A stretch of DNA of 64,000 nt from Actinomycetota bacterium (GTDB taxonomy: Bacteria > Actinomycetota > UBA4738 > CALAEC01). The notes below the pieces were generated by a model. It had not been told where the DNA came from. It saw only the letters and a program-made list of their open reading frames with translations, and searched no databases. Where the stretch lies: the NCBI GenBank assembly GCA_050692985.1, contig JBOGVZ010000047.1, positions 76,533 through 140,532 of the forward strand, read 5' to 3'. This document shows positions 16,433-51,280 of this stretch, piece by piece (position 1 is the first letter of the stretch; each line of letters begins with the position of its first letter). The position numbers and the translations under genes were made by a program.

Positions 16433-17410
16433 TCAGGTACCCTTCGCCGGGGGGTGGGTGTCGCGGATCTTGAACAGCCGGACGCGGCCCACGCCCTTGA
16501 GGCTCCGGCTCCCGATCCGCCTCGCGTCCACCGCGTCGCGGCCGACCGCGTCGACGAATTCCTCGGAGGCCACCACGGAGCTGGGCCGGGCGAAGGCGGT
16601 GATCCTGGCGGCCACGTTGACGGGCCGCCCGAAGTAGTCGCCGCCCAGGGCCACCACCTCGCCGTAGTCGAGCCCGGCCCGGGCCGCAGGGAGGACCTCC
16701 GATCCCTCGGCCCGGCGGACCACGGTGGCGGCGGCCTCCAGGGCCCGAGGGGCCTCCGTGGAGACGAACATCACCGCGTCGCCGATCACCTTCACCAGGC
16801 GGGCTCCGGCCTCGGCGCAGGCCTCCACGGCCAGGTCCTCGAAGGCGTCGATCATCCCGCCCAGCTCCTCGCCGGGCAGGTCCTCGGAGATGCGGGAGAA
16901 GTCCACCAGGTCCACGAACCCGGTGGCCAGCGCGGAGCCCTCGCCGGTCCCGGCGGCCCGCAGCCCGTTCAGGGCCAGGAACAGGTGGCGGCGGTGGGCC
17001 TGGTCGAGGAGGTGGGCAGTGCTCTCCAGCAGCGAGTCCATCACGGGGCGGAGCCGCTCCTCCATCCCCTCACCGGGCTCGACGGCCATGGCCCCCAGGA
17101 TGCGGTCGCGGAACAACCTCGTCTCCGCGTCGGCGATCCGGGCCAGCGTGGTTCCGTACAGCCTGGTCACGGTGAGCATCTCGTCGGGCGGAACCCCGAG
17201 CTCCATGATGCCCCGGAGCAACGCCAGCGCCTCGACGTCACGGTCGTCGAACACGACCTCCCGGTCGTCCGGCTCGGGCATCCCCAGGGCCCGCCACACC
17301 CGCTTGGCCAGCGTCAGGTCGAGCCCGGCCTTGGCCGCGGCCTCCGGGGCGGTCAGGTGCGGCGGAGGGGCGAAGCTCTCCGCGGGGGGTGGCAGCGGTC
17401 GCTCGGACAG
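16433..17410 (-). CDS. Class III adenylate cyclase with N-terminal regulatory domain (Rv1264-like)
   Basis: C-terminal cyclase ATGFVDLVDFSRISEDL...KVIGDAVMFV...GEVVALGGDYFGRPVNVAARI. The N-terminal ...GLDLTLAKRVWRALGM resembles the Rv1264 regulatory domain. Conserved residues extend upstream of the first GTG (17299) to a TAG. The only plausible start is CTG at 17408-17410, 6 nt after AGGAGG. Confidence 0.8.
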   Translation of the reverse strand: MSERPLPPPAESFAPPPHLTAPEAAAKAGLDLTLAKRVWRALGMPEPDDREVVFDDRDVEALALLRGIMELGVPPDEMLTVTRLYGTTLARIADAETRLFRDRILGAMAVEPGEGMEERLRPVMDSLLESTAHLLDQAHRRHLFLALNGLRAAGTGEGSALATGFVDLVDFSRISEDLPGEELGGMIDAFEDLAVEACAEAGARLVKVIGDAVMFVSTEAPRALEAAATVVRRAEGSEVLPAARAGLDYGEVVALGGDYFGRPVNVAARITAFARPSSVVASEEFVDAVGRDAVDARRIGSRSLKGVGRVRLFKIRDTHPPAKGT

Positions 17411-22346: not shown

Positions 22347-22510
22347 TCAGCCGCCGTGGGGATGCGGCTGGGGCCGGGTCTCCTTCAGCTCGACCAGCGT
22401 GCACCGGTAGCAGATCTCCACCCCGCAGGCCTCACCGCAGAAGCCGCACACCTCGACCTCCCGGGCGCAGCCGGCGCACCGGGCGGGCTCGTCAACCCTC
22501 GGGGTAGCCA
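22347..22510 (-). CDS. Small Cys-rich zinc-ribbon-like protein (54 aa), not in the ORF track
   Basis: Reverse-complement translation from ATG 22508-22510: MATPRVDEPARCAGCAREVEVCGFCGEACGVEICYRCTLVELKETRPQPHPHGG*, with seven Cys in CxxC/CxxC/CxxxxC spacing. It overlaps the last 19 nt of the rhodanese-CBS gene in another frame. Confidence 0.4.
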
Positions 22511-23253
22511 TGGTCCCTCCGGTGGAGCGCCTCGTGGAACTCCTCGGCGACGCGGACGGCGTCCTGGCGACGAAGCAGCCCGACCAGGGTCCCTTCGCCG
22601 GTGGTCACCGGGGCGCTGTGGAGGTCGTGCTTCGTCATGTACTCGGCCATCTCCGTGACGTAGACGTGGGGGCGGAACGTGCTCGGCCCCGCCTGCATGG
22701 CCTCCTCCACCCGGAGGCCCGGGTCCTTCCCCAGGTGCTCCTCCCGCAGGAGGCCCAGCACCACCCGCTCGTCGTTCGTGACCACGCAGACGTCCCACCC
22801 GGCCCGGCGGACCCGCTCGGCGACGTCACCGAGGCGCTCGTCGAGGGCGCAGGTGGGCACGTCGTCCCGGGCCACGCCCCCGGCCCTGGGGACCACGGAC
22901 AGCCTGCCTTCCGTGGGCAGGCCGGTGGCCAGCCAGTCCTGCTTGCCACCCACGTAGTCGTAGACTCGGGTGAACCCCATCGTCTCGAGCCGCCACGCGG
23001 CTCGGGGGCTCATGTCTCAGGGGTCGTCCCAGCAGTACACGATGATCGGACGCTCGGGGTCGAGCCGCTCCCGGGCGTCGGCGTCGATCTTCCGCAGCGG
23101 GATGTTGATGGCGCCCGGGAGGTGCTCCTCCTCGTACTCCTCGGGCGGGAGGACCTCCACGAGCTGGGCGCCCTCCTTCACCAGGCGGCGAACCTCGTCG
23201 CGGTCGATGGCTTCGGGCACGTTCGATCCAACCTCGCCTCCAGGCCTACCCAT
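22492..23253 (-). CDS. Rhodanese-CBS-pair fusion protein interrupted by one in-frame TGA (23017-23019) inside the rhodanese active-site loop; possible pseudogene or readthrough
   Basis: Upstream ORF tail: ...NVPEAIDRDEVRRLVKEGAQLVEVLPPEEYEEEHLPGAINIPL...RPIIVYCWDDP-TGA-D-MSPRAAWRLETMGFTRVYDYVGGKQDWLATGLPTEG, then a CBS pair. Homology is continuous and in the same frame across the stop. Confidence 0.6.
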
Positions 23254-23273
23254 TCCCCGCATGGGGAACGCGT

Positions 23274-24920
23274 CTACGGGCCGCCGGGTGCCCGGAGCTC
23301 TCGCTTCAGCACCTTGCCGGTCGAGGTGCGGGGCAGCTCGTCCACGATGTCGACGTGCCTGGGGACCTTGAACGAGGCCAGCTCGGCGCGGCAGGCCTTC
23401 AGGACGTCCTCCTCCGAGGCCGACCCCGCCACGAACGCCGCCAGCACCCGGCCGTACTCGGGGTCCGGCACGCCCACCACGGCGACCTCGTCCACGCCGG
23501 CCACGCGCTCGATGACCTGCTCGACCTCCACCGGGTACACGTTCTCGCCGCCGACCACCACCATGTCGTCGGCCCGGCCCTCCACGAACAGGTAGCCCCG
23601 TTCGTCCAGGTGGCCCAGGTCGCCGACGGCCAGGTAGCCCTGCCGGCCTTCCCGGCCTTCTCCCGAGGTGTAGCCCTCGAACGTGGCGTCGCTGCGGACG
23701 TGGATCTCCCCGGTCTCCCCGGCGCCGAGCGGCCGGCCCTCCGGCGAGAAGACGGCCACCTCCACGCCGGGGACGGGCCGGCCCACCGTGGCCGGGCGCC
23801 GGGCCATGTCCCGGGGCGTGGCCACCGTGACCCACCCCGCTTCCGTGGACCCGTACAGGTCGTGGAGGACGTCGCCCAGGACCTCCCGGGCCCTGGCCCG
23901 CAGCTCCTGGCCCAGCGATGCCCCGCTGGTGAACACGATCCGCAGGGACGAGAGATCGAAGCCGGATCGGGCCTCCTCGGGGAGGGACACGATCCGGCTG
24001 ATCATCACCGGGACCAGGGCCACGGCCGTGGCCCCGGTGTCCTCGACCATCCGGAGCGTCCCCCGGGCGTCGAAGCGCTCGGGCAGGACCATGGTGCACC
24101 CCAGCAGCATCGCCAGCGAGAACGTGAGCATGCCGAACGAGTGGAACATCGGCGCGGGGATGCACACCACGTCGTCGCGGCGCAGCGGCACCGCCGTGAG
24201 CAGGCCCAGGATCGAGGTGATCTCGCCGCCGCCGGTGCCCCTGGCCGCGCCCCTGGGCTTCCCCGTGGTGCCCGAGGTGTGGATCACGATGCGGTGCGAG
24301 CCGCGGTTCAGGGTCAGCGGGCCGGGTGGGGTGGGCGGATGCTCGGCCAGGAGGTCCTCGTAGGGACGGGAGCCCGGGACCGCGTTCTCCCCGTCGCCCG
24401 CGGCAACCAGGGCCATGCCGCCGGCGAGCTCGCCGACCCGGTCGGCGTGGAGCTCGTCGTACAGCAGGACCCTCGGCTCGGTCTGCTCGAGCGCCGGCCG
24501 CAGCTCCGACGGCCTGGCCCAGGTGTTCAGGGGGCAGGCCACCACACCCACCTTCTGTGCCGCCAGCACACCCTCCACCAGCTCCCGGCCGTTGCGCAGC
24601 AGCAGGGCCACCCGGTCCCCGGGCGACGCCCCCAGGGACGCCAGCGCTCCGGCAAGCCGGTTCACCCGCCCGTCGAGCTCGGACCAGGTCAGCGTCCCCC
24701 ACCGGTCGACCACCGCCTCCTTGTCCGGGAACGCCCGGGCGTTCAGGTGGCTGAGGATGCCCAGGGACGGGCCCCGCCCCGCCAGCCACGGGATCGACCG
24801 GAGCGCCGCCGCGGCCGCGGCCCGATCCACCAGCCGGGCGTCCCACAGCCGGGCCAGGGTCCTGGGCCCGGCCACAGCGGCGATCCGGCGCAGGCTCCGG
24901 CGCGCGCCCTCGAGCCTCAT
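23274..24920 (-). CDS. AMP-dependent synthetase/ligase (acyl-CoA synthetase family)
   Basis: IVIHTSGTTGKPRGA (AMP-binding box) ... LYGSTEAGWV ... GEIHVRSDATFEGY ... PRTSTGKVLKREL. The ATG at 24918-24920 overlaps the upstream hydrolase stop (ATGA). Confidence 0.9.
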   Translation of the reverse strand: MRLEGARRSLRRIAAVAGPRTLARLWDARLVDRAAAAAALRSIPWLAGRGPSLGILSHLNARAFPDKEAVVDRWGTLTWSELDGRVNRLAGALASLGASPGDRVALLLRNGRELVEGVLAAQKVGVVACPLNTWARPSELRPALEQTEPRVLLYDELHADRVGELAGGMALVAAGDGENAVPGSRPYEDLLAEHPPTPPGPLTLNRGSHRIVIHTSGTTGKPRGAARGTGGGEITSILGLLTAVPLRRDDVVCIPAPMFHSFGMLTFSLAMLLGCTMVLPERFDARGTLRMVEDTGATAVALVPVMISRIVSLPEEARSGFDLSSLRIVFTSGASLGQELRARAREVLGDVLHDLYGSTEAGWVTVATPRDMARRPATVGRPVPGVEVAVFSPEGRPLGAGETGEIHVRSDATFEGYTSGEGREGRQGYLAVGDLGHLDERGYLFVEGRADDMVVVGGENVYPVEVEQVIERVAGVDEVAVVGVPDPEYGRVLAAFVAGSASEEDVLKACRAELASFKVPRHVDIVDELPRTSTGKVLKRELRAPGGP

Positions 24921-32586: not shown

Positions 32587-33246
32587 ATGCGACTCCCCTC
32601 CCGCCTGGGCGTGTACGTGGTGACCTCCGCGGACCTGGTGCCCGGCCGCGGTCACCTCGAGGTGGCCCGGGCGGCCCTCCGGGGCGGGGCCGGGGCGATC
32701 CAGCTGCGGGCCCCCGAGCTGGCCGACGGCGACCTCCTTCCGCTGGCCCGGGAGCTGGCCGCGACCTGTGGGAACGCCGGGGCCCTGTTCGTGGTGAACG
32801 ACCGGGTGGACGTGGCGTTGGCGGCCGGCGCCGACGGCGCCCACCTGGGCCAGGGCGACGAGCTCGAGCGGGCCCGCGACCGGCTGGGGCCGGAGCGAGT
32901 GCTGGGGGTCAGCGTGGCCGACCCCGCCCAGGCGGCGGCCGCCCAGGCCGCCGGGGCCGACTACCTGGGGGTCACGGTGTGGCCCACCGGAACCAAGCCG
33001 GAGGCGATCCCGGTGGGGCTGGACGGGCTCCGGGCTGTCGTGGCGGCGGCCGGCGTCCCGGTGGTGGCCATCGGTGGGATCGACGAGCGCACCGCCCCCC
33101 CGGCCCTGGCCGCCGGGGCGTCGGGCGTAGCGGTGGTCTCGGCCGTGGGTGCCGCCCCCGACCCGGAGGCCGCCACCCGTAGGCTGGTCGACGTGGTGAA
33201 GAGGACCCGGACCGAGGCGGCCGCCTCGGAGGAGGACGTGGGATGA
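32587..33246 (+). CDS. thiE: Thiamine-phosphate synthase
   Basis: ...GAIQLRAPELADGDLLPLARELAATCGNAGALFVVNDRVDVALAAGADGAHLGQ...ADYLGVTVWPTGTKPEAIPVGLDGL...VVAIGGI. Confidence 0.85.
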   Translation: MRLPSRLGVYVVTSADLVPGRGHLEVARAALRGGAGAIQLRAPELADGDLLPLARELAATCGNAGALFVVNDRVDVALAAGADGAHLGQGDELERARDRLGPERVLGVSVADPAQAAAAQAAGADYLGVTVWPTGTKPEAIPVGLDGLRAVVAAAGVPVVAIGGIDERTAPPALAAGASGVAVVSAVGAAPDPEAATRRLVDVVKRTRTEAAASEEDVG

Positions 33247-34304
33247 GCGAAGAGCAGCGCCCCGGAAAGGTCACCCCCGAGCTGTTCGAGCGATACATCT
33301 TCCGGTACCTCGGTGCCCCGGACCCCGAGGTGCTCCAGGGCCCCCGCCACGGCGTGGACGTGGGCGTGGTCCGGGTGGCTCCGGGGGTGGCCATGGCCCT
33401 GACCGCCGACCCGGTGTTCATCGTGCCAGCGTACGGGTGGGACCGGGCGGCGTGGTTCGCGGTGCACATCCTGGCTTCCGACGCCGCCGTCAGCGGGCTG
33501 CCGCTGCGGTGGATGGCCGTGGACCTCAACCTGCCGGTGGCCACCACCGACGACGACCTGGCCGCGATCTGGACGGCGTTCTCCGGGACGTGCCGCGATC
33601 TCGGGATCGCCGTGGTCACCGGCCACACCGCCCGATACGACGGCTGTGACTGGCCGATGGTGGGCGGCGCGGTGTGCGCGGCCCTGGGGCCCGAGGATGC
33701 CTACGTGACCCCGGCGATGGCCCGGCCGGGCGACGCCGTGGTGGTCACCAAGGGCCCGGCCATCGAGGCCACCGCGCTGTTCGCCGCCACGTTCCCCGAC
33801 CGGCTGGCCGCGGGCGTCGGGGCCGACGTGGCCAAGGCCGCCGACGCGCTGTTCGAGCAGATGACCGTGGTCCCCGAGGCCGCGGTGGCCGCGGCGTACG
33901 GACTGCGAGACGCTGGCGTCACGGCCATGCACGATGCCACCGAAGGGGGTCTGGTAGGCGGGCTGGCGGAGGTGGCCACCGCGTCCGAGGTGGGCCTGCG
34001 GATCGACCTGGCCGCGGTTCCCGTTCCCCCCGAGGTCCGGGCGGTGTGCGACCACGTGGGCATCGACCCGTTCACCTCGATCTCCGAGGGCACGCTGATC
34101 GCCACCGTACGGCCCGGCCACGCCGACGGCTACGTTGGGGCGTTGGGAGAGGCGGGGATCGAGGGGGCCGTGATCGGCGAGGTCACCGAGCCGCAGGCGG
34201 GCACGGTCCTGGTCGACGGCGGCGCCAAGCGGCCGCTGGAGCACCCGGGCCTGGACCCGTTCTGGGATGCGTTCGGCCGGTGGGCCAGGGAGGCGGCCGG
34301 CTGA
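33243..34304 (+). CDS. AIR-synthase-related (PurM-superfamily) protein, ThiL/HypE-like
   Basis: Overlaps the thiE stop (ATGA). PurM N- and C-domain motifs (..HGVDVGVV.., ..AMHDATEGGLVGGLAEVA..). Confidence 0.65.
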   Translation: MSEEQRPGKVTPELFERYIFRYLGAPDPEVLQGPRHGVDVGVVRVAPGVAMALTADPVFIVPAYGWDRAAWFAVHILASDAAVSGLPLRWMAVDLNLPVATTDDDLAAIWTAFSGTCRDLGIAVVTGHTARYDGCDWPMVGGAVCAALGPEDAYVTPAMARPGDAVVVTKGPAIEATALFAATFPDRLAAGVGADVAKAADALFEQMTVVPEAAVAAAYGLRDAGVTAMHDATEGGLVGGLAEVATASEVGLRIDLAAVPVPPEVRAVCDHVGIDPFTSISEGTLIATVRPGHADGYVGALGEAGIEGAVIGEVTEPQAGTVLVDGGAKRPLEHPGLDPFWDAFGRWAREAAG

Positions 34305-38642: not shown

Positions 38643-39557
38643 TCACTGGGGGGTTCGGACGGCGAAGGCCAGGGGCCGCCCCGGCTCCCGCGACTTGCAG
38701 GTGAGGATGCGGGGGTCGCGCCGTCCGACGGCGACCTCCACCCGGTGGCGGGGACCGTCCACCTGGTCGAACTCGACGACGTGGCGGCCCCGAGCCAGCC
38801 GCCGGACCGCCCGGAACGCCAGGTCCTCGACCCCGACGATCCCGTGCCGCTCCCGGACGAAGTGCTCGGCGGCCTGGACGGCCGGCGGATAGGCCGAGCG
38901 CCCCCTGTAGAACGGCAGGGCGATCCGTCCCCGGGCGTAGGCCTCGGCCACCCCTACCGCATCGCCCGGTCCCACCCGTCCGAAGTACAGCCCGTGGGGG
39001 AAGCACACCACGTTGCCGGCGAAGCGGTCGCCGCCCACGTGGGTGGCCTCCCACACCGCTCCGTCCCCGAACCCGGCCAGGGCCCGGTACAGGGGCCCGC
39101 CCAGGCGGGCGCAGCAGGGGTCGTGCTTGCCATGGGTGCACACCAGGTAGAGCGGCCCGGGCACGGGCTCACCGAACCCCTCGAACCGCCGCCCCACCAG
39201 GGCGTCGAGGTCCAGCTCCATCAGCCAGGCCGGGTCGTCGACCTCGAAGCTGGCCACCCGGTGACGGTCCCGCCCGGTGTGCGCCACGAAGCACCTCCGT
39301 GGCACCGCCACCGGCCGCTGCCGCTGCTTGACGAGCAGCACGCGCATGCCCAGCCGCGTTCCGGCCTCGGCCAGCCTGGCCCCGACGTCGGGAGGGAACG
39401 CGCTGTCGACCAGGGCGTCGTGCCCCCACCGGCCGGGCTGCTCGATCAGCAGCCAGGAGCGGAACCGCGACGCCGTGCCGGCCAGGGGCTCGTCGGCCGC
39501 CAGGGAGACCGCGGAGCACACCGCCCCCTCAGCGGCCACCTGTGACCTCGAGGGCAC
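38643..39557 (-). CDS. Sucrase/ferredoxin-like (thioredoxin-like [2Fe-2S]) family protein
   Basis: ...LYLVCTHGKHDPCCARLGGPLY..., the characteristic Cys cluster. Its last codons and TGA stop (CCC CAG TGA) are formed by the 5' terminus of repeat fragment C. Confidence 0.65.
   Translation of the reverse strand: MPSRSQVAAEGAVCSAVSLAADEPLAGTASRFRSWLLIEQPGRWGHDALVDSAFPPDVGARLAEAGTRLGMRVLLVKQRQRPVAVPRRCFVAHTGRDRHRVASFEVDDPAWLMELDLDALVGRRFEGFGEPVPGPLYLVCTHGKHDPCCARLGGPLYRALAGFGDGAVWEATHVGGDRFAGNVVCFPHGLYFGRVGPGDAVGVAEAYARGRIALPFYRGRSAYPPAVQAAEHFVRERHGIVGVEDLAFRAVRRLARGRHVVEFDQVDGPRHRVEVAVGRRDPRILTCKSREPGRPLAFAVRTPQ
38644..38658 (+). repeat. Fragment C: only the 15-nt 5' terminus (CACTGGGGGGTTCGG) of the hairpin repeat
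   Basis: Identical to the first 14-15 nt of copies A and D. The rest of the element is absent. Confidence 0.5.
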
Positions 39558-46654: not shown

Positions 46655-46870
46655 TCAGTCCCGCAGGAAGAACTGCCACCCGCGAACGAACAGGTGCCAT
46701 CCGAGCCACAGCCACACCGCGAAGAGCACCCATCGCCCCACCACGCTCCGGGTGACCACGTCGAGCATGTCGCTGATCGTGGGGAAGCTCGGTCCGGACA
46801 CCATGGCCAGACCCTGCCAGATGAAGAAGAGGGCGACCAGGACGGCCCATCCAACGAGCGCCATCATCCG
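46655..46870 (-). CDS. Hypothetical small membrane protein (Trp-rich)
   Basis: Internal Met of ORF 46655..47338: MRMMALVGWAVLVALFFIWQGLAMVSGPSFPTISDMLDVVTRSVVGRWVLFAVWLWLGWHLFVRGWQFFLRD. Confidence 0.35.
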   Translation of the reverse strand, partial: RMMALVGWAVLVALFFIWQGLAMVSGPSFPTISDMLDVVTRSVVGRWVLFAVWLWLGWHLFVRGWQFFLRD

Positions 46871-51112: not shown

Positions 51113-51187
51113 TGCGCCCGGAGGGACTCGAACCCCCAACCTCCTGATCCGTAGTCAGACGCTCTGTCCAAATTGAGCTACGGGCGC
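51113..51187 (-). tRNA. tRNA-Arg (anticodon ACG)
   Basis: Reverse complement GCGCCCGTAGCTCAATTTGGACAGAGCGTCTGACTACGGATCAGGAGGTTGGGGGTTCGAGTCCCTCCGGGCGCA folds as a cloverleaf with 7-bp acceptor stem, anticodon loop CTACGGA and a GTTCGAGTC T-loop. CCA is not encoded. Confidence 0.85.
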
Positions 51188-51191
51188 TGCG

Positions 51192-51280
51192 CGGAGGCGG
51201 TGCGATTTGAACGCACGAGGGGCTTGCACCCCAACGGGATTAGCAATCCCGCGCCATAGACCAGACTAGGCGACGCCTCC
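51192..51280 (-). tRNA. tRNA-Ser (anticodon GCT), class II with long variable arm
   Basis: Reverse complement GGAGGCGTCGCCTAGTCTGGTCTATGGCGCGGGATTGCTAATCCCGTTGGGGTGCAAGCCCCTCGTGCGTTCAAATCGCACCGCCTCCG, with anticodon stem CGGGA/TCCCG and loop TTGCTAA. Confidence 0.85.

Follow-up and report, generated by a model that had tools for sequence, protein, structure and literature searches.

We analysed a 64,000-nt stretch of DNA from an Actinomycetota bacterium (assembly GCA_050692985.1, contig JBOGVZ010000047.1, positions 76,533 to 140,532; hereafter the window, numbered from its first letter) that carries, on its minus strand at 22492..23220, a rhodanese-CBS gene with a single in-frame UGA at 23019-23017. 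We propose that this is the gene of a single selenoprotein, in which the UGA is decoded as selenocysteine (Sec) by means of a hairpin resembling a bacterial selenocysteine insertion sequence (SECIS). From the sequence evidence we put the probability of this reading at about 0.88. That the UGA is conserved and recoded is very probable, with a small share left for a residue other than Sec.

A rhodanese-CBS gene with one in-frame UGA

The minus-strand translation of 22492-23301 reads ...RPIIVYCWDDP*DMSPRAAWRLETMGF..., and the TGA at 23019-23017 is its sole internal stop. The canonical rhodanese active-site Cys (C63, TGC codon at 23032..23034) comes after the IIVY strand. The TGA follows five residues further on, as the first-pass annotation of this DNA had described, and is residue 68 from the start codon. 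When the stop was bridged, Pfam returned one Rhodanese domain across the TGA (PF00581, 63.8 bits against a cutoff of 22.2; 22918..23190, residues 22-112 of the 256-aa query) and two CBS repeats (PF00571, 45.9 bits against a cutoff of 24). The repeats lie in two stretches within 22537..22884 and form a CBS pair (Bateman module), which was also recovered by Foldseek. These scores bear out the earlier view that the two same-frame open reading frames (ORFs) make up one rhodanese domain followed by a CBS pair. The upstream part has the marks of a rhodanese domain: it exceeds the curated cutoff of PF00581, and a Cys opens its active-site loop.

The complete gene comprises 242 sense codons, counting the UGA, and its own TGA terminator (22494-22492). 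Because homologues begin with MPxxIDR, we place its start at the GTG codon 23220-23218 and not at the ATG at 23253 that had been assumed at first. In a public annotation (CDIABC010000050.1, from the metagenome-assembled genome [MAG] GCA_975305695.1) the gene stands as two ORFs, a 67-aa Rhodanese protein and a 162-aa CBS protein. The G+C content of the window is ~73%. We also scanned the window for pairs of long, coding-like ORFs that share a frame and are parted by a single TGA. Apart from this site there was just one match, an ordinary gene boundary, and the arrangement at the rhodanese-CBS gene is far beyond chance.

The UGA is conserved across species and aligned with Cys in homologues

A scan of one-genome-per-species contigs yielded 338 related stretches, of which the best 80 were compared (loci L006-L085). 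Each of the 80 comes from the genome of a different species, and every one has TGA at this very codon; with five further loci the count was 85 of 85 examined. These loci belong to Actinomycetota, Dormibacterota, Rokubacteria/Methylomirabilota and Chloroflexota, except for one from a Bacillota MAG. Over the 64 residues upstream of the TGA, mean pairwise identity was 55%, and over the 150 residues downstream it was 58%. An in-frame UGA that orthologues share, flanked on either side by conserved coding sequence, is one of the marks of a selenoprotein gene. The terminator of the gene was itself TGA in 67 of 84 TGA-form genes, and UGA is therefore still a stop codon in these organisms. Two TGA-form copies, ~21 kb apart, were present on a single contig of an Actinomycetota MAG (L050 and L055 on JBOGVD010000102.1), so the family can be duplicated within one genome.

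A protein search returned 2479 relatives, and the best 120 clusters were inspected at the site. At least 50 of them begin exactly at the Met after the TGA and are for this reason regarded as truncated gene calls. Cys occupied the site in at least 31 clusters, Trp in 14 (e.g. P0002, P0031, P0061 and P0098), and Arg and Ser in two each. A check of the DNA of one locus (L113, 198-968) showed that the codon given as Trp by the gene caller is TGA. JGI public calls read both this TGA and the real TGA terminator as Trp, which produces spurious W variants and C-terminal extensions.

A search of metagenome contigs for the motif with TGY at the site found 25 loci with 17 distinct sequences. Their motif is Y-C-x-D-x-x-C-D-x-S-P-R-A-A-W-R-L-E, that of the UGA form is Y-C-W-D-x-x-U-D-x-S-x-R, and the window reads V-Y-C-W-D-D-P-U. 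The first Cys, D+2, D+6, S+8 and R+10 did not vary in any of 46 full-length protein calls. Alignment of these orthologues at position +5 gave Cys in 36, Trp (the misread TGA) in nine and Arg in one. Cys in homologues aligned to the UGA, found here in the 25 TGY loci and in at least 31 of the best 120 clusters, is a further mark of a selenoprotein. It had been suggested that the site is that of a conserved loop Arg and that the stop arose by a CGA>TGA change. The first suggestion does not agree with the alignment, where Arg was found in one or two sequences only, and the second was rejected because homologues have Cys at this position and not the loop Arg. The Cys-form rhodanese-CBS homologues are single polypeptides. 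One metagenome protein of Cys form (P0054) was called as a fusion to a peroxiredoxin.

A conserved hairpin follows the UGA

The first-pass annotation saw no SECIS-like hairpin directly downstream of the TGA. Folding of the 40 nt from the UGA, however, gave an 8-bp stem of C16-C23 with G27-G34 and a G24-U25-G26 loop (U of UGA = 1), with an energy of -15.5 kcal/mol and z = -2.4. In the window the hairpin occupies 22986..23004 on the minus strand, 23004-22997 pairing with 22993-22986 around the loop 22996-22994. The stem begins 12 nt past the UGA and the distance from the UGA to the loop is 20 nt. Across the family the stem is 7-8 bp long and begins 12-13 nt 3' of the UGA. RNAalifold predicted the same hairpin from 81 distinct TGA-form sequences, with seven pairs in all or nearly all of them, one pair alternating between A-U and G-U, and the eighth pair present in 60 of the 81. 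A small apical loop containing G is a hallmark of the bacterial SECIS (PMC1088965), and a stem-loop of this kind stands right after the UGA here.

At the nucleotide level, no stretch of the rhodanese-CBS gene is more conserved than the hairpin. Its 15-nt core GCCGCGUGGCGGCUC occurs exactly once in the whole window and was intact in 79 of 81 Sec forms vs seven of 17 Cys forms. In the Sec forms the codon series GCC-GCG-UGG-CGG-CUC is fixed. Counting the U of UGA as 0, third-position entropy in the Sec forms was 0-0.1 bit at +20, +23, +29 and +32, whereas the Cys forms had 1.1-1.45 bit at +20, +23 and +32 and 0.32 bit at +29; flanking four-fold codons of the Sec-form sequences reached 1.2-1.8 bit. 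At six synonymous or degenerate sites, off-consensus nucleotides numbered 1 of 486 in Sec forms vs 19 of 102 in Cys forms (Fisher p = 1.4e-14, uncorrected for phylogeny). In the Sec forms position +17, which belongs to an Arg codon, is restricted to A or G, so that its pairing with U+31 is always kept, while the Cys forms have C and U as well. The mean hairpin energy was -14.1 kcal/mol in Sec forms and -11.0 kcal/mol in Cys forms.

The SECIS of Escherichia coli fdhF is likewise a hairpin within the coding sequence, directly after the UGA (UGA140). Folded in the same way, it has the apical loop G22-G23-U24-C25, with GU at +23/+24, and here GU is at +24/+25. The two elements are similar in stability (fdhF, -14.9 kcal/mol; window hairpin, -15.5 kcal/mol). 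Unlike the fdhF element, the hairpin of the window has a perfect, G+C-rich stem of 7-8 bp, a 3-nt loop, no bulged U and an unrelated sequence. Its invariance across phyla is unusual for bacterial SECIS elements.

Selenocysteine traits in relatives and the identity of the inserted residue

A conserved UGA, a hairpin and Cys homologues leave the inserted residue unnamed. Some bacteria are known to have systems that recode UGA to Cys, and the codon might be read as Cys by a tRNA-Sec-like tRNA(Cys) together with a SelB-like factor, or as Trp or Cys by near-cognate read-through aided by the hairpin. We consider such recoding to a residue other than Sec unlikely, because bacteria that carry the gene encode a selD that itself contains a UGA, as well as further selenoproteins of classic type, and because the geometry of the hairpin fits the SelB-dependent SECIS of E. 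coli.

We searched the window and all 110 loci by tblastn with E. coli SelA, SelB and SelD, and the only real match was a selD gene at an Actinomycetota locus (L039, 7432-8481, minus strand), ~1.5 kb upstream of the rhodanese-CBS gene. Its product scored 340 bits against a cutoff of 125 for TIGR00476. This selD has an in-frame TGA of its own at the known Sec/Cys site (HGAG-TGA-ACK) and thus needs Sec decoding itself. Gene callers would truncate it at that codon. A tRNA-Sec was found neither by ARAGORN in the window and 60 loci nor by Rfam in the window.

At five loci, a peroxiredoxin gene with TGA at the catalytic (peroxidatic) Cys lies at most 10 kb from the rhodanese-CBS gene. Three are Bcp-type peroxiredoxins with the motif T-[PS]-G-TGA-T (L005, 6140-6619; L012, 10443-10901, minus strand; L031, 9539-9991), and two are Prx-like genes with G-D-W-TGA-P-Y-C (L045, 14429-14851; L026, 1606-2028; both minus strand). 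Both types appear in published lists of selenoprotein families (PMC13188914, PMC9312934). In each of the three Bcp-type genes the TGA is followed by a conserved hairpin of its own, GGGGYUC-CGUGAYC-GAGCCCC. The Sec trait in relatives that carry the gene lends indirect support to Sec at the UGA of the window.

Other explanations of the UGA and points against Sec decoding

The gene might be naturally split, with a stop at the UGA and a restart at the next-but-one codon, giving a 67-aa protein and a 173-aa CBS protein. The window does have ATG two codons past the TGA, and gene callers use it. However, of 81 sequences no more than 26 have ATG at this codon and three have TTG; the others have CTC, CTG, ATC, CTT or ATT, and an arrangement of stop and restart is therefore not conserved. 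The break would moreover fall inside the rhodanese active-site loop, and the Cys forms are made as one chain. We regard a split gene as very improbable.

A plain nonsense mutation, which would make this a pseudogene in the present genome, would be in line with the single in-frame stop and with the two separate ORFs of the public annotation, but it is hardly credible when the same TGA recurs at all 85 related loci examined, in many species and phyla, when the protein is conserved on both sides with no other stops, and when the nucleotides just downstream of the TGA are under extra constraint. That the related loci are copies of one contaminant is excluded because their flanking synonymous sites are saturated. 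An error of base-calling or assembly at 23017-23019, hiding a true TGC, TGG or CGA, has equally little in its favour: the window comes from a MAG, and a second assembly (Logan SRR27067772, L116) starts 1 nt before the post-TGA ATG and is silent on the codon, but TGA was found there in independent assemblies from dozens of projects. The first-pass annotation had named nonsense mutation, recoding and base-call error without choosing among them; the sequence evidence favours recoding to Sec, and the other two fall away.

Several points weigh against decoding as Sec. No selA, selB, selD or tRNA-Sec gene was found in the 64-kb window, a result that covers the window only. No compensatory covariation was seen in the hairpin across the 81 TGA forms, since the element is invariant, and the case for an RNA structure thus rests on conservation of synonymous sites and on thermodynamics. 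The Fisher and Mann-Whitney tests take no account of phylogeny. The hairpin core was also retained by the seven Cys forms mentioned above, which could reflect recent conversion from Sec to Cys or codon bias. Finally, the chemistry of the C-x4-U pair, the ligand of the CBS pair and the role of a small neighbouring ORF (below) are inferred only.

Comparison with other rhodanese proteins

An AlphaFold2 model of a Cys homologue (P0007, 65% identical) was of very high confidence, with a predicted local distance difference test score (pLDDT) of 96.3 and a predicted TM score (pTM) of 0.88. The model has a strand at 59-62, a loop with C63 and C68 (the Sec position) and a helix at 70-80. As both residues lie in the loop between strand and helix, the model places the Cys and the Sec position within the rhodanese active-site cradle.

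The classical rhodanese loop of GlpE and PspE has six residues, C-R-x-G-x-[RT]. In comparison, the loop of the window protein is two residues longer, with C-W-D-x-x-U-D-x before the conserved Ser, and the protein scored 27-28 bits with the GlpE and PspE profiles against cutoffs of 102-126. The best sequence match among solved structures was BH2092 of Bacillus halodurans (PDB 3NHV and 3O3W; E = 1.7e-14), an uncharacterised single-domain rhodanese, which was also the best Foldseek match of the rhodanese domain (root-mean-square deviation [rmsd] 1.7 A over 109 columns). BH2092 shares the enlarged loop, Y-C-W-G-P-A-C, with its second Cys at the Sec position. Unlike the window protein, it has Cys in place of Sec and no CBS pair. 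For the CBS half, the closest Foldseek matches were the nucleotide-binding CBS pairs of AcuB, the cytosolic domain of MgtE and plant CBSX2 (E ~ 1e-9, rmsd 1.6-2.5 A), none of which is fused to a rhodanese domain. Foldseek found no solved structure with both domains; the TM score normalised to the query was at most 0.48.

Rhodanese-type selenoproteins are known, and a 2026 review distinguishes five forms (PMC13188914): UxxS (form 1), UxxG (form 2), CxU (form 3; NF041203, rhodanese_LYCAU), UxxG (form 4) and UxxxxU (form 5; TsoB, NF045694). Like these, the window protein has a rhodanese homology domain with the predicted Sec in or beside the active-site loop, and is predicted from a Sec/Cys pair and a SECIS. 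The forms differ in where Sec stands: at the catalytic position in forms 2 and 4, at +2 in form 3, and at +5 here, with the canonical Cys kept. The spacing in TsoB is the same five residues (U-x4-U vs C-x4-U here). Unlike TsoB, the window gene has one UGA only and a CBS pair in place of a DsbD-like fusion. The protein scored 26.8 bits with NF041203 (cutoff 115), from whose L-Y-C-A-U motif it differs, and 21 bits with NF045694 (cutoff 805), and it reached no NCBIfam cutoff. The table of the review lists a CBS domain for none of the five forms, and only PF00581 for form 1 (PMC13188914). Form 1 (UxxS, WP_010941598.1) has a label that U-D-M-S fits, and it may be identical with the protein described here.

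Carriers of the window type are soil Actinomycetota, Dormibacterota, Rokubacteria and Chloroflexota, whereas the known rhodanese selenoprotein forms come mainly from Deltaproteobacteria and marine metagenomes. Our literature search found no paper that joins rhodanese, CBS domain and selenoprotein or selenocysteine. The combination of C-x4-U and a CBS pair fits no curated family. We suggest that the C-x4-U rhodanese loop is new, rhodanese-type selenoproteins as such being already known. Descriptions of further bacterial selenoprotein families appear regularly.

A small Cys-rich ORF beside the gene

A 54-aa Cys-rich ORF (22347-22511, minus strand) overlaps the 3' end of the rhodanese-CBS gene by 20 nt, in agreement with the first-pass annotation. 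It encodes CxxC-x6-CxxC-x3-C-x4-C-xx-C, with seven Cys, and ends in QPHPHGG. An ORF of this kind was found 3' of 53 of the 80 TGA-form loci whose downstream DNA was long enough, and in most cases the two genes overlap by the 4 nt ATGA. It has six Cys that never vary, and in 42 copies the C-terminus is H-x-H-G-G (usually QPHxHGG). Neither the Rokubacteria loci nor any of the 23 Cys-form loci had it, a distribution that may track the use of Sec or reflect phylogeny alone.

We detected 102 homologues of the small ORF, every one of them named 'hypothetical', and the ORF matched no family of Pfam, NCBIfam or PDB. A copy at least 90% identical carries an Actinomycetota label in NCBI. A few members match Pfam Rhodanese_C weakly (E = 0.006). 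Clustering of the ORFs within ~6 kb of 82 loci showed nothing recurrent beyond the small Cys-rich ORF and an occasional peroxiredoxin.

Proposed mechanism and implications

In the proposed mechanism, the ribosome would read the UGA at 23019-23017 as Sec, the mRNA hairpin with its G-U-G loop, 12 nt downstream, would act as a bacterial SECIS that recruits SelB and Sec-tRNA(Sec), and translation would terminate normally at the gene's own UGA, which has no such hairpin. The product would be a rhodanese domain fused to a CBS pair, its enlarged loop holding the canonical Cys and, five residues on, Sec. Cys and Sec may form a redox-active thiol/selenol pair (selenenylsulfide) for the transfer or reduction of sulfur or selenium. 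The CBS pair may gate the rhodanese chemistry by binding an adenosine-type ligand, and the translationally coupled small Cys-rich protein may be a partner or substrate in many lineages.

More speculatively, the gene and its coupled partner could be an undescribed two-protein relay for selenium or sulfur, in which the Cys-x4-Sec rhodanese is loaded with a chalcogen or reduces it, then hands it on to the seven-Cys protein or modifies that protein, and the CBS pair couples the relay to the levels of adenylate or S-adenosylmethionine. The strictly C-terminal His-x-His-Gly-Gly of the small ORF recalls the Gly-Gly tails of thiocarboxylate carriers of the ThiS/MoaD type; unlike their beta-grasp fold, its scaffold is zinc-ribbon-like. 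We hold a relay of this kind to be a long shot.

If the UGA is decoded as Sec, the gene is misannotated in hundreds of public genomes and metagenomes: some records break it into a 67-aa 'rhodanese' and a protein of ~170 aa called 'CBS domain protein' or 'MgtE', and others put Trp where Sec belongs. A family model would mend these annotations. The gene would also bring a widely distributed selenoprotein to the soil lineages Actinomycetota, Dormibacterota, Rokubacteria and Chloroflexota, for which our literature search found no selenoprotein papers. The short, perfect and invariant hairpin would offer a clean substrate for studies of SelB recognition in high-G+C bacteria, and possibly a compact tag for engineered Sec insertion. 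A Cys that is kept, with Sec at +5, points to chemistry with a resolving residue (selenenylsulfide), which is uncharacterised for rhodanese domains. BH2092, the structural homologue with Cys, is also without known function, and this makes the enzyme a tractable target.

Other features of the window

The second match of the scan for same-frame ORFs, at 46657 on the minus strand, is an ordinary stop between the genes of two small hydrophobic proteins of the membrane type, and we rejected it as a second selenoprotein gene of the window. An AIR-synthase-superfamily gene at 33243-34304 on the plus strand was considered as selD and likewise rejected. It scored 80 bits with HypE, 75 with ThiL and 59 with SelD, all under the curated cutoffs, and resembles an enzyme of the HypE/ThiL type. 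The gene has a 4-nt overlap with the end of an ORF at 32587-33246, which, following public calls, we take as a TMP-TENI (thiamine phosphate synthase-like) gene.

ARAGORN reported a 90-nt tRNA-Pro(GGG) at 17229-17318 and an 81-nt tRNA-Thr(GGT) at 39154-39234, both on the minus strand, and the Rfam tRNA model confirmed neither. The former falls inside the gene of a protein resembling an adenylate cyclase regulator. In DNA of such high G+C content, both calls are probably spurious. A tRNA-Arg and a tRNA-Ser at 51113-51280 were confirmed.

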